From NCBI RefSeq assembly GCF_003334355.1, contig NZ_QOWP01000015.1: a stretch of 64,000 nt of DNA. One strand, 5' to 3'. The stretch is from Escherichia coli (GTDB taxonomy: Bacteria > Pseudomonadota > Gammaproteobacteria > Enterobacterales > Enterobacteriaceae). The notes beneath the pieces were generated by a model. It did no database searches. It was not told where the DNA came from and saw nothing but the letters and a program-made list of their open reading frames with translations. Position 1 is the stretch's first letter, and every line of letters starts with the position of its first letter. This document shows positions 30,847 to 50,624 of this stretch, one piece after another. A program made the position numbers and the translations under genes.

Positions 30847-31737
30847 ATGGATGCAAAACAAACGCGGCAGGGCGTATTACTCGCTCTTGCCGCTTATTTT
30901 ATTTGGGGTATAGCGCCAGCGTACTTCAAGTTGATTTACTACGTGCCCGCCGATGAAATCCTGACGCATCGCGTGATCTGGTCGTTTTTCTTTATGGTGG
31001 TGCTGATGAGCATTTGCCGCCAGTGGTCCTATTTAAAAACGCTGATTCAGACGCCACAGAAAATTTTTATGCTGGCAGTCTCTGCCGTGCTGATTGGTGG
31101 CAACTGGCTACTGTTTATCTGGGCGGTGAACAATCACCATATGCTGGAAGCGAGCCTTGGTTACTTTATTAACCCGCTGGTGAACATTGTGCTGGGGATG
31201 ATTTTCCTCGGCGAGCGATTCCGCCGGATGCAATGGCTGGCGGTGATTCTGGCGATATGTGGCGTGTTAGTCCAGCTGTGGACTTTTGGTTCGCTACCTA
31301 TTATCGCGCTGGGACTGGCATTTAGTTTTGCCTTCTACGGTCTGGTACGCAAGAAGATTGCCGTTGAAGCGCAAACCGGCATGTTAATTGAAACCATGTG
31401 GCTGCTGCCCGTGGCGGCAATTTACCTGTTTGCTATTGCCGACAGCTCAACCAGCCATATGGGGCAAAACCCGATTTCGCTGAATTTACTGCTGATCACC
31501 GCCGGTATTGTCACTACCGTACCGCTGTTGTGTTTTACTGCGGCTGCGACACGCCTGCGTCTCTCAACGTTAGGCTTTTTTCAGTACATTGGCCCGACGC
31601 TGATGTTCCTGCTGGCTGTGACGTTTTATGGTGAAAAACCGGGTGCCGATAAGATGGTGACCTTCGCCTTTATTTGGGTGGCGCTGGCAATTTTTGTGAT
31701 GGATGCGATTTATACGCAGCGTAGAACGTCCAAATAA
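30847..31737 (+). CDS. rarD: EamA/DMT-family permease RarD
   Basis: 296-aa 10-TM ORF recognised as RarD. Confidence 0.93.
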   Translation: MDAKQTRQGVLLALAAYFIWGIAPAYFKLIYYVPADEILTHRVIWSFFFMVVLMSICRQWSYLKTLIQTPQKIFMLAVSAVLIGGNWLLFIWAVNNHHMLEASLGYFINPLVNIVLGMIFLGERFRRMQWLAVILAICGVLVQLWTFGSLPIIALGLAFSFAFYGLVRKKIAVEAQTGMLIETMWLLPVAAIYLFAIADSSTSHMGQNPISLNLLLITAGIVTTVPLLCFTAAATRLRLSTLGFFQYIGPTLMFLLAVTFYGEKPGADKMVTFAFIWVALAIFVMDAIYTQRRTSK

Positions 31738-31831
31738 AAAATAAATATATTCTGAAAAAATATGCCGACTCTTGCATGAGAGTGGGCATATTGCCATGCT
31801 GACCGGAGACTCATACAAGGATGTAAAATTT

Positions 31832-32212
31832 ATGTTACGTATATTTATCCCAACATCTAACGGTAAGATTTCCAGACGTCGTTATATATTTTCATTTATT
31901 TTAATAAATTTCATTTTTGCCTTTCTTATTATCTTTTTTAACGATGGAGAAGCAGGCTTTCTTGTTATAGTCTCTACCATCGTACTCCATTATCTCGTCA
32001 TCAACATGAATTGCCAGCGACTCCGTGATAGTGGTTTCATCTATATAAAAACTTATGTTTTTGGTACATTAGCAGTATATATCATCTCTATCATCACAAT
32101 GATAGCCGAAGATTTTGCCTGTTCAGGCAATGGTTCGATGATTTTTTTGATTTGTTATTTTTCCACTTTCAGTATGCTAATGCTTGCACCTACTGATTCA
32201 TCAAAACAATAG
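31832..32212 (+). CDS. yigG: Small inner membrane protein YigG (function unknown)
   Basis: 126-aa hydrophobic ORF in low-GC DNA; start chosen at ATG 31832 ([12 protein letters not shown]) after AAGGA; in-frame upstream ATGs at 31772 and 31796 cannot be excluded. Confidence 0.7.
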
Positions 32213-32225
32213 TTATGGAGTATTT

Positions 32226-32606
32226 ATGAGTAAGGAATATATGAACGATGGTTCATTAAGTGAAAAATGGAAATACCGATTTAATTTTTATGATCAACAT
32301 GGTTTTCCTGGATTCTGGGGGGCAACACCAGAATATAAAGCAGCATTTAAAGCATTAAAAGTAAGACAACGCTTAACTATTCAAATGAATTTCATTGCTT
32401 TCTTCTGCTCCTGGATATATTTATTTGTCCTTGGGTTATGGAAAAAAGCAATTATAGTTCTATTACTTGGTATTCTATCTCTATTTGTTGGTGCACTAAT
32501 TGGCGTTAACATTCTGGGAATTGCCGTAGCAGCCTATGTTGCTGTTAACACGAACAAATGGTTCTATGAGAAAGAGGTAAAAGGGTTAAATACCTGGAGC
32601 CTTTGA
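32226..32606 (+). CDS. yigF: Small inner membrane protein YigF (DUF2628-like, function unknown)
   Basis: 126-aa ORF from ATG 32226 (MSKEYMNDGSL) after GGAG RBS, 13 bp after the yigG stop; two predicted TM helices. Confidence 0.75.
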   Translation: MSKEYMNDGSLSEKWKYRFNFYDQHGFPGFWGATPEYKAAFKALKVRQRLTIQMNFIAFFCSWIYLFVLGLWKKAIIVLLLGILSLFVGALIGVNILGIAVAAYVAVNTNKWFYEKEVKGLNTWSL

Positions 32607-32612
32607 ATAACA

Positions 32613-32650
32613 GGTGGCTTAGCCAGACTAAGCCACCGCTCTCGTTTTTT
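32613..32650 (+). terminator. Intrinsic terminator after yigF (overlaps the corA stop)
   Basis: Hairpin gtggcttag-ccaga-ctaagccac followed by a T-run. Confidence 0.55.
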
Positions 32651-33599
32651 ACAACCAGTTCTTCCGCTTAAAGTACAGATACGGTGCCAGGCCCGCGAGG
32701 ATCATAAAGATAATCGCGCCTGGGTAGCCGAAACTCCACTTCAGTTCTGGCATAAACTCAAAGTTCATCCCGTAGCTGGAGGCAACCAGCGTTGGCGGCA
32801 GGAACACGACGGATACCACCGAGAAAATTTTGATGATGCGGTTCTGCTCGATGTTGATAAAACCCATTGCCGCCTGCATCAGGAAGTTCACCTTCTGGAA
32901 CAGGGATTCGTTATGCGGCAGCAGGGATTCGATATCTCGCAGGATTTCACGCGCCTGCTCCAGTTGCCCACCCGGTAAACGCGCTTTACGCACCAGGAAG
33001 TTGAGCGCACGCTGGGTATCCATCAGACACAGGCGCACTTTCCAGCCGATATCTTCCAGTTCCGCCAGAGTGGAGAGCGCCTCGTCGTACTCATCGCCCT
33101 GATGCCCTTCCATAATCACCCGGCTCAACTGCTCCAGGTCGCTATAGATATTTTCAATTTCATCTGCCAACTGTTCGATTTTGGTTTCGAACAGATCCAG
33201 CAGCAGCTCGTAGGCGTTACCGTCCACCATCGACTGGCTACGGGCACGCATACGATACAGACGAAAAGCGGGCAGTTCACGCTCACGCAGAGTAAACAGA
33301 CGACCATCACGGATGGTAAATGCCACAGTGGAGTTACCGGCGTGATCTTCCGCATCTTCAAAGAAGAAGAAGGAGTGAATATGCAGGCCGTCGTCGTCTT
33401 CAAAGAAACGTGCCGATGCTTCGATGTCTTCCAGTTCCGGGCGGGTTGCCAGGCTCTGACCAAGTTCAGATTGTACGCGCAGTCGCTCGTCGTCGTCCGG
33501 TTCGACAAGATCAATCCATACTGCATTTACAAGGGGTTGTGACTCTTCGACTTCCAGCCGGGTCAGTCGGTTATTTTCCAGTTGAAATGCGCTCAGCAT
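32649..33599 (-). CDS. corA: Magnesium/cobalt transport protein CorA
   Basis: Track ORF to 33614; recognised 316-aa CorA begins [15 protein letters not shown] at ATG 33599; C-terminal GMNF motif and two TM helices. Confidence 0.95.
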
Positions 33600-33968
33600 G
33601 ACCGGGACTCCCAATGCTTAAAATATCGGACAGTTCGGTGGGCACACAGAAACAAATTGGGTTTCAGACCATTAAACAGCCTGACTCAGCGCGACGGGAA
33701 AAATTGAGGTCGCTGACAACCGCTAAGGCTATCAGCAAAAAGGGATAGCCTTAGGAGTTGATCCTGGATGACAGGATAGTGAGCCAGTATCTACTGGGTG
33801 TGTCCAAGGCGAATGTCCTCTTAGAGTGATCGTGCGCGCATGTTACGCCAGCAAAATTTTGCCGTCAACACGCAACAGAACACCACAGAACAATAGTTGA
33901 ACTTCGCGCTTTTTGGTACTCGTCAAGGTCGCTAACAGGATAAAAAAATCCCACATCCAGGACCTATA

Positions 33969-47147: not shown

Positions 47148-48344
47148 ATGCTAAAAGTGTTATTACTCTTTGTTTTGCTGATTGCGGGGATAGTGGTTGG
47201 CCCGATGATTGCCGGTCATCAGGGTTATGTGCTGATCCAAACCGACAACTACAATATCGAAACCAGCGTCACGGGCCTGGCGATCATATTGATTCTGGCG
47301 ATGGTAGTGCTGTTTGCCATTGAGTGGCTACTGCGGCGGATCTTCCGCACTGGCGCGCACACCCGTGGGTGGTTTGTCGGGCGTAAGCGTCGCCGTGCAC
47401 GTAAGCAGACCGAACAGGCGCTGCTGAAACTGGCGGAAGGCGATTATCAGCAAGTTGAAAAGCTGATGGCGAAAAATGCCGATCACGCTGAACAACCGGT
47501 GGTGAACTATCTACTGGCTGCCGAAGCCGCGCAACAACGTGGTGATGAAGCGCGCGCCAACCAACATCTGGAACGCGCAGCGGAGCTGGCCGGCAATGAC
47601 ACCATTCCGGTAGAAATCACCCGTGTACGTCTGCAACTGGCCCGTAATGAAAACCATGCTGCACGCCACGGCGTGGATAAGCTGCTGGAAGTTACGCCAC
47701 GCCATCCGGAAGTATTACGTCTGGCGGAACAGGCGTATATCCGCACAGGTGCATGGAGTTCTCTGCTGGATATCATCCCATCAATGGCGAAAGCCCATGT
47801 TGGTGATGAAGAACATCGTGCAATGCTGGAACAACAGGCATGGATTGGCCTGATGGATCAGGCGCGTGCCGATAACGGTAGTGAAGGTTTGCGTAACTGG
47901 TGGAAAAACCAAAGCCGGAAAACGCGTCATCAGGTAGCGTTGCAGGTGGCAATGGCGGAACATCTTATTGAATGTGACGATCATGATACTGCCCAGCAAA
48001 TTATCATCGATGGCCTGAAACGCCAGTACGACGATCGCCTACTGCTGCCGATTCCTCGACTGAAAACCAACAATCCGGAACAGCTGGAAAAAGTGCTGCG
48101 CCAGCAGATCAAAAACGTCGGCGATCGCCCGCTGTTGTGGAGCACACTGGGCCAGTCACTGATGAAGCACGGAGAATGGCAGGAAGCATCGCTCGCCTTC
48201 CGCGCAGCGCTGAAACAACGTCCGGACGCCTACGATTACGCATGGCTTGCCGACGCGCTGGACAGACTGCACAAGCCGGAAGAAGCTGCAGCGATGCGTC
48301 ACGACGGTTTGATGTTAACGTTGCAGAACAACCCACCACAGTAG
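47148..48344 (+). CDS. hemY: HemY protein (TPR-containing inner membrane protein)
   Basis: 398-aa ORF; AAGGAG RBS; last gene of hemCDXY. Confidence 0.93.
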   Translation: MLKVLLLFVLLIAGIVVGPMIAGHQGYVLIQTDNYNIETSVTGLAIILILAMVVLFAIEWLLRRIFRTGAHTRGWFVGRKRRRARKQTEQALLKLAEGDYQQVEKLMAKNADHAEQPVVNYLLAAEAAQQRGDEARANQHLERAAELAGNDTIPVEITRVRLQLARNENHAARHGVDKLLEVTPRHPEVLRLAEQAYIRTGAWSSLLDIIPSMAKAHVGDEEHRAMLEQQAWIGLMDQARADNGSEGLRNWWKNQSRKTRHQVALQVAMAEHLIECDDHDTAQQIIIDGLKRQYDDRLLLPIPRLKTNNPEQLEKVLRQQIKNVGDRPLLWSTLGQSLMKHGEWQEASLAFRAALKQRPDAYDYAWLADALDRLHKPEEAAAMRHDGLMLTLQNNPPQ

Positions 48345-48391
48345 TTCCTTCTCACCCGGGGGCAAGCACCTCCGGGGCCTTCCTGACACAT

Positions 48392-48598
48392 AAAAAAACG
48401 CCTGCTCTTATTACGGAGCAGGCGTTAAAACAGGTCTGTATGACAACAAGTGGGTGCTTCACTCAACGTTGTGTCCATGGTGTCTGATGAGGCATAAGCG
48501 ACATCTGTCAGTGGACGATAAGCACCGTAAACGGCTCTGCGTCATTCCGGAGTTTATGAGGCACTAAGGCGAACATAAGAGATGGAATGAGCATCTAC
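48392..48598 (-). ncRNA. glmZ: GlmZ small RNA (SraJ/RyiA), glmS activator
   Basis: Minus-strand transcript beginning GUAGAUGCUCAUUCCAUCUCUUAUGUUCGCC and ending in hairpin AACGCCUGCUC-CGUAAUAA-GAGCAGGCGUU plus U7; location (hemY/aslA intergenic) and about 207-nt length fit GlmZ; ends +/-2. Confidence 0.8.
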
Positions 48599-49022
48599 TC
48601 GTTTATTATGCCACAGAGAATCGGGAAATAACATCCCTTAACACTTGTTATGAGATAATTCTGTAATCCTCTTTGCTTCCTGAGTAATAACTTCCTGAGT
48701 GAATATTTAACCTGAGCTTGATCCTACACATACTTATTATGAATGATAAAATTCATTCAATTAATAACACATATATTAATTGCCGTTAAAACTAAAAACA
48801 GCATCAATAATCAACGCGATATAATAAACCTGCCTTACATATCAACTGCGCCAGAGGTAGGATTGAAAACGCTCTCCTGATTTTCCAATTCATTTTCTGG
48901 ATAAATAAATAATTTATTTTTGTCACTATTATTTATGTAATCATCCTGTCAGGGAGAGGGATCTCAATTATCAATGCTTAATTACGTCATCATTTTGATG
49001 ACATGAAACCGGAGCATTTTGC

Positions 49023-49184
49023 ATGGAAATTTCGTTTTCACCCAAACGTCTTGTTGTTGCTGTCGCCGCCGCTCTTCCTCTCATGGCCAGCGCAGCAGAT
49101 ACCCCGTCAACTGCCACCGCACGCAAAGGCTTTGCCGGATACGATCACCCAAACCAGTATCCACAGAACGCTGCAATTTATTGA
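49023..49184 (+). pseudogene. aslA: aslA (arylsulfatase) N-terminal remnant, about 53 codons
   Basis: ATG-initiated frame encoding signal peptide [27 protein letters not shown]...; frame ends after about 53 codons at the REP/terminator; too little space before aslB for an intact sulfatase. Confidence 0.6.
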
Positions 49185-49198
49185 ATTTGCACGATCAT

Positions 49199-49236
<38 letters not shown>

Positions 49237-49244
49237 AACCGCAG

Positions 49245-49269
49245 GCGGCCACAAAATGGCCGCTTTTTT
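49245..49269 (+). terminator. Intrinsic terminator (aslA 3' end), abutting the aslB stop
   Basis: gcggcca-caaaa-tggccgc hairpin followed by T6. Confidence 0.55.
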
Positions 49270-50503
49270 ACTTACTCACCACCAGCAAATGCGCATGCAT
49301 AATGTCACTGGCCGGGCGACCGTGCGCCAGCAAATCAGCCATTGCTTTAAGATATGGCGGTAGATGGCGGAAATAACGCTGATACCCGGCACACAAATAA
49401 TTCAGCCCCGGTTTGCCTCTGGCATCGAGCATGAAGCGGTGTTTCGGGCAGCCTCCCCAGCACGCTTTTAACACGTTACAACTGCGACACTGCGCCGGTA
49501 ATTGCTTAAATTTATCTTCACCAAACGCCTGCTGTTGCGGGGAATCGATCATTTCTGCAATTGTTTGCTGGTGCATATTCCCCAGCCGATATTGTGGATA
49601 AACATAGTGATCGCAGGCGTAAACGTCGCCGTTGTGCTCAACAATCACCGAGCGCCCACAGGTTGGCTGATGATGGCAAACCGCACCCGGCGCACCGACA
49701 AAATTGGCAAACGCCCATTCGATATTCATCACGAAAATCTTGCCGACGTCGCGTTTAATCCAGTGGTCGAATATCGCCACCAGAAATTCACCGAACTCCT
49801 CGGGGCGCACCGACCATTCCGTTAGCTCACCCTGAATATCACCAGGCGCATGCAATTTCAGTCCTTCGCGGGCAGCCATTTCATCAGCCAGGCGCTCGAC
49901 CACCGGAATAAACTGGATGAATTCCACTCCCGCATCGCACAAAAAATCATATACCTGCAACGGTTGCTGCGCGCTGGTGCGATTAACGCAGACCAGCACG
50001 TTATAGTCGACATGATGTTTTTGCAGCAGCGTCAGGGCACGCATCACCAGCTTATGCGTGGGTCTGCCACCTTTAGTCACGCGATATTGATTGTGGATCT
50101 CAGGCGGACCATCCAGCGATAAACCAACAAGAAAATGATGCTCCGCGAGAAACGCGCACCATTCGTCATCCAGCAGCACGCCGTTAGTCTGGAAGCTGTT
50201 ACTTATCTTCCTGCCAGCACCATATTTCGCCTGTAGCGCTACGGCACGGCGGTAAAACTCCAGCCCGAGTAGCGTTGGTTCGCCGCCCTGCCAGGTAAAA
50301 GCCACTTCGTTTTGCAGTTCGCTGGCGGCGATATAGTGACGGATATACGCTTCCAGCGTGTCATCGTCCATATGCGTGACTGGCTTTTCGCGGTAAAGGG
50401 ATTGTTTTTCGAGATAAAAACAGTAGTCACAGTTCAGATTACAATCGGAACCACTCGGTTTCGCCATCACATGAAAAGCACGCGTTGGAACCTGTTGCAG
50501 CAT
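49268..50503 (-). CDS. aslB: Anaerobic sulfatase-maturating enzyme homolog AslB (radical SAM/SPASM)
   Basis: Track ORF to 50533; recognised N-terminus MLQQVPTRAFHVMAKPSGSDCNLNCDYC at ATG 50503 (411 aa); CX3CX2C radical-SAM motif and C-terminal Cys clusters. Confidence 0.9.
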   Translation of the reverse strand: MLQQVPTRAFHVMAKPSGSDCNLNCDYCFYLEKQSLYREKPVTHMDDDTLEAYIRHYIAASELQNEVAFTWQGGEPTLLGLEFYRRAVALQAKYGAGRKISNSFQTNGVLLDDEWCAFLAEHHFLVGLSLDGPPEIHNQYRVTKGGRPTHKLVMRALTLLQKHHVDYNVLVCVNRTSAQQPLQVYDFLCDAGVEFIQFIPVVERLADEMAAREGLKLHAPGDIQGELTEWSVRPEEFGEFLVAIFDHWIKRDVGKIFVMNIEWAFANFVGAPGAVCHHQPTCGRSVIVEHNGDVYACDHYVYPQYRLGNMHQQTIAEMIDSPQQQAFGEDKFKQLPAQCRSCNVLKACWGGCPKHRFMLDARGKPGLNYLCAGYQRYFRHLPPYLKAMADLLAHGRPASDIMHAHLLVVSK

Positions 50504-50624
50504 GGTCACTCCTTGCCTGAAGTCATCCTTCAATACGTTAAGGGCGAAATCATACCGTGGGGCAATGAGTTATTACGGGCGTTTATTGCGAAGGGAGGGT
50601 GACGAAATGCACAGAAAACAAAAA

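Follow-up and report, generated by a model that had tools for sequence, protein, structure and literature searches.

Between the small RNA gene glmZ and the divergently oriented gene aslA, the chromosome of Escherichia coli carries a stretch of non-coding DNA that is strikingly poor in G+C, and in the strain studied here its far end leads into an aslA gene of which only the 5′ part is left. This raises the question of what the AT-rich DNA is for, and whether, next to a truncated aslA, it still holds functional regulatory sites for glmZ. Here, we examined it within a window of 64,000 nt (assembly GCF_003334355.1, contig NZ_QOWP01000015.1), in which glmZ ends at 48598 according to Rfam and the ATG of aslA stands at 49023, so that the spacer spans 48599-49022 and measures 424 bp. 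The first-pass annotation had described a strongly AT-rich segment of about 420 bp, which is correct except that its left end lies one base further out, at 48599 rather than 48600. The immediate neighbourhood is as follows.

48392-48598, minus strand: glmZ small RNA gene, full length, with +1 at 48598 (Rfam RF00083, 218.4 bits, model positions 1-214)
48397-48426, minus strand: intrinsic terminator of glmZ (terminator scan)
49023-49184, plus strand: aslA remnant of 53 codons, 46 original ones (signal-peptide region) followed by 7 new ones
49268-50533, minus strand: intact aslB, anaerobic sulfatase maturase (ORF list and annotation of matching genomes)

On the glmZ side hemY ends at 48344, and beyond aslB lie genes for tRNA-Pro, tRNA-Leu, tRNA-His and tRNA-Arg. 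The spacer is an already known and characterised piece of the E. coli chromosome, and we consider it highly probable that the segment is simply the standard aslA–glmZ intergenic region, composed of the sigma70 promoter of glmZ and an H-NS-bound control region of aslA that derives from an aslB–aslA module. The new material is comparative only, comprising a candidate promoter for aslA and a proposed structural explanation of how glmZ lost its control by GlrR and sigma54.

The compositional description given in the first-pass annotation holds. The GC content of the spacer is 0.325 (67.5% A+T), far below the mean of 0.528 across the window; relative to all windows of 424 bp it corresponds to z = -5.1, and only 0.33% of them are equally low. 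The long A/T tracts that had been quoted are present, the longest pure A/T run being 21 bp (48901-48921). The sole other comparable trough in the 64 kb lies at about 31.6-32.7 kb, where the interval 31772-32606 (GC ~0.31), flanked by a rarD-like gene (30847-31737) and, on the minus strand, a corA-like gene (32649-33614), holds two small membrane-like ORFs, 146 and 140 aa long; these two ORFs are presumably the yigG and yigF genes of K-12.

The absence of a credible ORF from the spacer could likewise be confirmed, as only frames of 20-45 aa occur there, and they are not conserved, having lost their start codon or gained stops in other E. coli lineages or Escherichia species. Could the spacer nevertheless hide an unannotated gene, be it for a small protein, an sRNA or an antisense transcript, driven for example by the minus-strand element TTGAGA-N16-GATGAT (48967-48940)? 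ORFs of 45, 40 and 27 aa are available for such a gene, and AT-rich, H-NS-bound DNA is known for its spurious promoters. Promoter-like sites on both strands emerge both from our scan and from a genomic SELEX study (PMC3946193). Against this, the ORF starts are lost in B2-like E. coli and stops interrupt the frames in other Escherichia species, a search of the spacer against Rfam at E <= 5 returned nothing credible (two chance-level matches to eukaryotic snoRNAs only), and the generic promoter scan found three sites where 2.4 are expected, which makes it uninformative. Moreover, the GATGAT hexamer is not conserved, and the RNA fold of the putative aslA leader does not stand out significantly (z = -1.08). 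We therefore regard a hidden gene as very unlikely.

The spacer belongs to the core chromosome. Megablast recovered it from 5424 of 5426 complete E. coli genomes, with a median of one copy and at most two; its identity reaches at least 99% in 3065 genomes, while 1939 fall into a 90-95% band. When compared base by base with K-12 DH5alpha, whose aslA is intact, the spacer and glmZ together show zero differences, and the spacer is also 100% identical in RR1 and further strains. Over the longer interval 48302-49161, five differences from DH5alpha were found, all located in hemY, in the hemY–glmZ gap or in codon 3 of aslA. The truncation of aslA itself, as noted in the first-pass annotation, is real: blastn revealed that 1579 bp of the K-12 sequence (L001 4313-5891) have been deleted, and the junction falls at 49161/49163. 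This deletion lies outside the spacer and begins 564 bp upstream of the glmZ +1. It is a common allele and not peculiar to this strain, since a 96-bp probe spanning the junction matched end to end in 1729 of the 5426 complete E. coli genomes, including an identical junction in the B1 strain E24377A, where RefSeq annotates a partial arylsulfatase pseudogene.

Because the spacer is base-for-base identical to that of K-12, control of glmZ is untouched by the truncation of aslA. The suspicion that the truncation might have cost glmZ some of its regulatory sites is thereby refuted, the more so as the deletion lies 564 bp away and, in K-12, everything upstream of -40 is dispensable (PMC3045617). The comparison with strains carrying an intact aslA, proposed in the first-pass annotation as a check, has thus been carried out and found the spacer identical in K-12 DH5alpha. 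Taken as stated, the finding matters little: it concerns a piece of core chromosome beside which an aslA pseudogene lies without effect on glmZ.

Several minor features surround this locus. No obvious microhomology is seen at the deletion junction. Downstream of the aslA remnant, 49171-49265 is occupied by a REP-type repeat, within which fall a sub-threshold match to naRNA4 (49202-49250; 42.5 bits, the gathering score being 59.5) and a partial minus-strand match to ES036 (49171-49192), and at its 3′ side sits a terminator-like hairpin (49243-49265). Among the matches listed, E. coli C9 (NZ_CP010129.1 49216-50943) is the sole 100% full-length match to a 951-bp query, and there the match is split by an IS1 insertion of ~777 bp that is absent from the window. 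In E. coli SA186, from the 94%-identity, B2-like lineage, RefSeq places a 591-bp hypothetical CDS between hemY and glmZ (positions 1-95 of the retrieved match), which the window does not have.

The first-pass annotation had further likened the spacer to curved, H-NS-type silenced DNA, and of these two properties only the H-NS-type character finds support. With a GC of 0.325 over 424 bp, the spacer has the extended high A+T content typical of H-NS-bound or silenced DNA, and its K-12 counterpart is on the list of divergent spacers to which RpoD holoenzyme as well as H-NS bound in genomic SELEX (PMC3946193, Shimada et al. 2014). That evidence was obtained in vitro with K-12 (PMC3946193); given the identical sequence, H-NS binding would be expected to carry over to our strain. 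The high-affinity nucleation motif TCGATAAATT is not enriched in the spacer (one match against 1.4 expected), and the closest match, TGGATAAATA at 48898-48907, has two mismatches and is not above chance. It is thus likely that A+T richness alone is the basis of the binding. Compared with other H-NS-bound AT-rich promoter regions (PMC3946193), the spacer is similar in its 67.5% A+T and is itself listed as H-NS-bound, whereas it differs from H-NS-silenced regions in that the adjoining aslA and aslB have a normal GC content (~0.51-0.55) and in that it shows neither excess curvature nor a high-affinity motif.

Curvature was predicted with the Bolshoy–Trifonov wedge model, which correctly ranked phased above unphased A-tracts in a control (41 versus 8 degrees). 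The mean predicted curvature of the spacer is 10.0 degrees versus 8.7 for the window, which places it at the 85th percentile. Composition-matched shuffles, however, had an equal or higher mean in 76% and an equal or higher maximum in 94% of cases, so that the spacer lies below the shuffle average, and the model does not predict strong intrinsic curvature. These figures also bear on the idea that the spacer is chiefly structural, that is, curved DNA organising the nucleoid or the promoter geometry and not a carrier of sequence-specific sites. Its AT-richness, its several A/T runs, a local peak of 25 degrees at about 49016 (among the highest 0.4% in the window) and a moderate rise at 48780-48820 would fit such a role, but a mean at the 85th percentile that remains below that of composition-matched shuffles speaks against it, and we give it only a slim chance.

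For glmZ itself, the spacer can be read directly against published work. The relevant elements are these.

48599-48638, minus strand: core constitutive sigma70 promoter of glmZ (-1 to -40), matching the published ATGTTA-N15-tggCATAAT
48605-48610, minus strand: -10 box CATAAT (-12 to -7 of +1), preceded by TGG at 48611-48613
48629-48634, minus strand: -35 box ATGTTA (coordinates checked)
48639-48668, no strand assigned: block at -41 to -70 of glmZ, conserved across five Escherichia species-level taxa

On the minus strand, the sequence leading up to the glmZ +1 reads ATGTTA-TTTCCCGATTCTCTG-TGG-CATAAT-AAACGA-G(+1), with both boxes at the published distance from the start site. The likeness to the K-12 aslA–glmZ region (PMC3045617) is complete, as all 424 bp and glmZ are identical and the boxes are equally spaced from +1; the difference is that in the window aslA has been cut to 46 codons by a deletion outside the spacer. 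In K-12, deletions from the 5′ side retained full glmZ activity down to -40 and abolished it at -20, and mutation of either the -35 or the -10 box destroyed promoter activity (PMC3045617). These deletion data come from plasmid-borne lacZ fusions assayed under a limited set of conditions (PMC3045617). As the sequence is the same, the promoter would be expected to function identically in our strain. A natural counterpart is found in strain PSS-16, where an IS1-associated deletion has left just 50 bp upstream of glmZ; we note that in this natural minimal-promoter variant the IS1A insertion and its adjoining deletion (L128 3001-3820) also removed the N-terminal part of aslA.

In most Enterobacterales, GlrR, IHF and sigma54 act on an activating region upstream of glmZ (PMC3045617). 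If the spacer still carried such a region, as in Salmonella and Yersinia, the aslA deletion might have damaged it, and the first-pass annotation had accordingly suggested a scan of the minus strand for sigma54 and IHF motifs. We scanned for sigma54, GlrR, IHF, CRP, Fis, Fur and H-NS motifs, with shuffle expectation as the control, and none exceeded that expectation in the spacer except for a weak excess of IHF-like sites. Allowing up to one mismatch, neither the GlrR site TGTCN10GACA, of which the Salmonella/Yersinia type has three within ~250 bp upstream, nor the sigma54 pattern TGGC-N8-TGC occurs in the spacer ±30 bp. Of the TGGCAC-N5-TTGCA arrangement, with GG at -24 and GC at -12, the -24 box is missing, with TCCCGA at -28 to -23. 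The IHF consensus WATCAANNNNTTR has four one-mismatch matches in the spacer versus 1.4 expected, which is what can be said for a surviving activating region; they are mislocated, at distances of 211-383 bp from the glmZ +1, with no GlrR site beside any of them. Furthermore, GlrR does not bind the K-12 fragment from -424 to +32, which contains the whole spacer, and K-12 glmZ expression is unchanged by deletion of glrR or rpoN (PMC3045617, Goepel et al. 2011). With a K-12-identical sequence that has no TGGCAC-N5-TTGC-type box and no TGTCN10GACA, and with the aslA deletion outside the spacer, 564 bp from +1, we give a damaged activating region practically no chance. In agreement with the published work, 48599-48638 is the complete glmZ promoter, and upstream activator sites are neither present nor needed. 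Some conditional input to glmZ may come from the -41 to -70 block, because it is conserved across Escherichia, yet dispensable in the plasmid lacZ assays.

How did E. coli glmZ come to differ from its relatives? Published accounts describe its loss of sigma54 control as gradual and leave it unexplained, with no mention of aslBA or the tRNA, and reviews speak of an 'evolutionary transition for reasons that remain elusive'. Among species-representative genomes, a pattern scan yielded at least 120 glmZ loci (Klebsiella and E. fergusonii are not among the loci listed), of which 92 Enterobacterales loci with at least 700 bp upstream of glmZ formed the comparison set. In eight of these, glmZ is linked to aslA (E. 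albertii, E. whittamii, two cryptic Escherichia, two Kluyvera, Pseudocitrobacter and Superficieibacter electus), and in the other 84 it is not. All eight linked loci have a spacer of 400-525 bp with a GC of 0.30-0.34, no sigma54 box and no GlrR site. By contrast, the sigma54 box with its overlapping -10, TGGCAC-N5-TGCAATAAT, is kept in 78 of the 84 loci without adjacent aslA, where the 424 bp upstream of glmZ have a GC of 0.35-0.54 and where most loci carry one to three exact GlrR sites and some none. Linkage to aslA and lack of the sigma54 box are thus associated (Fisher p = 3e-8, not corrected for phylogeny and resting on four genera). The position of tRNA-Pro differs as well: most loci without aslA have it on the same strand, at 180-1240 bp upstream, whereas the distance to glmZ is ~3.6 kb in those six aslA-linked loci with enough sequence to see it.

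Only one part of the spacer is shared with the sigma54-type loci.

48599-48615, minus strand: the sole part homologous to the ancestral sigma54/sigma70 glmZ promoter (-1 to -17), covering the -12/-10 region

Compared with the consensus of 46 sigma54-type loci, E. coli is identical at 13 of 17 positions from -1 to -17 and at 12 of 43 from -18 to -60. In blastn, homology to Salmonella and Raoultella stops at -17/-18, and homology between Salmonella and E. albertii extends as far as the tRNA-Pro terminator, at -268 in Salmonella and -3579 in E. albertii, and picks up again from -17. In Salmonella, Yersinia and most Enterobacterales, the glmZ and glmY promoters that depend on sigma54, GlrR(QseF) and IHF use the identical start site and resemble the spacer in the -12/-10 stretch (TGTGCAATAAT versus TGTGGCATAAT in the spacer), whereas the spacer lacks the -24 GG box and the GlrR sites that IHF sites flank in those promoters, and its similarity to them beyond -17 is at random level. 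Closer in type is the Klebsiella/Raoultella glmZ promoter, ATGCAA-N15-tgcGATAAT, which is likewise sigma70-only and has no sigma54 box, and in which some residual similarity may extend through the -35 box (ATGCAATTTCC against ATGTTATTTCC); this last similarity is an impression by eye only, since blastn detects no homology between Raoultella and E. coli upstream of -18. Raoultella differs in having tRNA-Pro directly upstream (~-190), no aslA, and an upstream GC of 0.50.

Between tRNA-Pro and glmZ, the arrangement aslB–aslA–spacer is present in Escherichia, Kluyvera, Pseudocitrobacter and Superficieibacter electus and absent from the same site in the other 84 loci (~30 genus-level groups). Such presence/absence polymorphism at a fixed site between conserved flanks is what a mobile module would produce, although there is no extra ORF, such as one for an integrase, between tRNA-Pro and glmZ, and the GC of aslA and aslB is ordinary (~0.51-0.55). 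The divergence of AslA and AslB between genera roughly parallels that of HemY, which argues that the module is old. Superficieibacter sp. 1612_C1 has no aslB–aslA module but has kept -68 to +1 of its aslA-bearing relative.

Taken together, the pattern among aslA-linked loci, the break in homology at -17 and the displacement of tRNA-Pro suggest that the AT-rich spacer is the inner end of the aslB–aslA module and occupies the place that the GlrR/IHF/sigma54 region holds elsewhere. The AT-rich DNA would then have arrived with the module, between tRNA-Pro and glmZ. We see about an even chance that the switch of Escherichia glmZ from GlrR/sigma54 to sigma70 was a single replacement and not a gradual decay. 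In such an event, an activating region of ~250 bp, from the tRNA-Pro terminator to -18, would have been exchanged for a 3.56-kb aslB–aslA module that brought along an AT-rich, H-NS-bound leader. As homology to the sigma54-type genera resumes only at -17, the breakpoint would lie between the -24 and -12 elements, and for that reason the overlapping sigma70 -10 box and the start site would have survived. The resulting junction type may then have spread to, or persisted in, Kluyvera, Pseudocitrobacter and Superficieibacter, and would have outlived the module itself where this was later lost, as in Superficieibacter sp. 1612_C1 and perhaps also Klebsiella and Raoultella. For those working on the GlmY/GlmZ circuit, this by-product of our analysis may be of use, as it offers a structural reason why E. 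coli glmZ escapes GlrR(QseF)/sigma54.

Some observations made in the course of this comparison deserve a separate record. The sigma54 -24 box of glmZ was lost independently, with no aslA nearby, in Citrobacter youngae, sp. Cu233, Phytobacter massiliensis, a Pluralibacter MAG and the MAG UBA5654; in the first two of these, CC has taken the place of GG, turning TGGCAT into CCGCAT. Relative to E. coli, glmZ of Raoultella ornithinolytica and Enterobacter sp. JUb54 has an extra 50-100 nt in stem-loop 2. An E. coli-type glmZ promoter with the 5′ end of the gene also turned up on a 279-bp, low-coverage contig of an Alkalicoccobacillus porphyridii assembly; its presence there, in a member of the Bacillota, is almost certainly due to contamination with E. 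coli.

The ~385 bp beyond the glmZ promoter are the upstream region of aslA. An alignment of eleven Escherichia sequences, seven of them from E. coli and the others from E. albertii, E. whittamii and two cryptic lineages, showed conserved blocks at 48599-48668, 48789-48884, 48902-48937 and 48943-49025, with variable DNA between them. Beyond the glmZ promoter, the features are the following.

48638-48667, plus strand: TTAACA-N18-TGTAAT, the best-match promoter listed in PMC3946193, overlapping the 48639-48668 block
48676-48705, no strand assigned: 15-bp tandem duplication, CTTCCTGAGTAATAA then CTTCCTGAGTGAATA, in a block poorly conserved in other Escherichia species
48789-48884, plus strand: best-conserved central block of the spacer (alignments), holding a TATAAT and the putative aslA promoter
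48834-48863, plus strand: putative aslA promoter, -35 CTTACA (48834-48839), N18, -10 TAGGAT (48858-48863), from cross-genus conservation
48901-48937, no strand assigned: conserved A/T block including the 21-bp pure A/T run ATAAATAAATAATTTATTTTT, candidate H-NS contact or 5′ UTR element
48943-49022, plus strand: conserved proximal aslA leader (alignment), with Shine-Dalgarno GGAG at 49011-49014
48986-49002, no strand assigned: inverted repeat GTCATCA-TTT-TGATGAC in the proximal aslA leader

Nine spacers, from Escherichia, Kluyvera, Pseudocitrobacter and Superficieibacter, each contain the pattern YTTACA-N18-TAnnnT exactly once, and the distance between its two elements is always 18 bp, in spacers from four genera that can otherwise barely be aligned. 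From this conservation we infer that CTTACA-N18-TAGGAT is the promoter of aslA, with a predicted start at ~48870 and a 5′ UTR of ~150 nt. With agreement to the consensus at 8 of 12 positions, this promoter would be weak; the generic promoter scan did not list it. In vitro, an aslA probe gave a sigmaS/sigma70 transcription ratio of 2.5 (PMC3141248). The aslA part of the spacer would thus combine three elements: the AT-rich DNA, a sigma70-type promoter of low strength, and a conserved leader that runs for ~150 nt up to the GGAG. Bound by H-NS in vitro, the AT-rich DNA most likely silences aslA in ordinary growth. The view that this non-coding spacer holds the divergent control regions of both genes, already put forward in the first-pass annotation, is hence supported. 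The candidate aslA promoter may be of use as well; in meningitic E. coli K1, aslA has been reported to act as an invasion factor.

Other candidates on the aslA side were rejected. The TATAAT at 48820-48825 has no -35 box to make it the aslA -10 and reads TATAAC in B2-like strains. Two elements from the SELEX study (PMC3946193) fared no better: the -10 of TTAACA-N18-TGTAAT reads TGCAAC or TGTACC in other Escherichia, and in the minus-strand TTGAGA-N16/17-GATGAT (48967-48940) the GATGAT is not conserved in other Escherichia species. The inverted repeat at 48986-49002 was considered as a selected hairpin or palindrome and dismissed because several E. coli lineages carry one or two mismatches without compensation; E. 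albertii shows one apparently compensatory double change, and one cryptic lineage has G-U-compatible changes.

What remains of all this in the present strain? With aslA dead through a common 1579-bp deletion, the elements on its side are probably vestigial, and the control of glmZ is unchanged. One may go further and regard the 385 bp on the aslA side as a functionless relic in this strain, still in place either because its loss would need more time or because a deletion extending into the glmZ promoter would be harmful. The reduction of aslA to a 53-codon remnant, the loss of nearly the whole spacer in PSS-16, and the tolerance of aslA loss that the identical junction in 1729 of 5426 genomes implies are all in line with such a relic. 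On the other hand, the spacers of strains with the deletion allele are 99-100% identical to those of strains with intact aslA and show no visible decay, although this comparison has little power because divergence within E. coli is low. We rate the relic as a serious possibility, somewhat short of an even chance, and it is compatible with, not opposed to, the reading of the spacer as the standard aslA–glmZ intergenic region. Small-scale length variation in the spacer was also seen among E. coli strains: MINF_1A has a single copy of the 15-bp unit that is duplicated at 48676-48705, and ATCC 8739 carries a separate 7-bp duplication (TCAATTA) at the position equivalent to ~48962.
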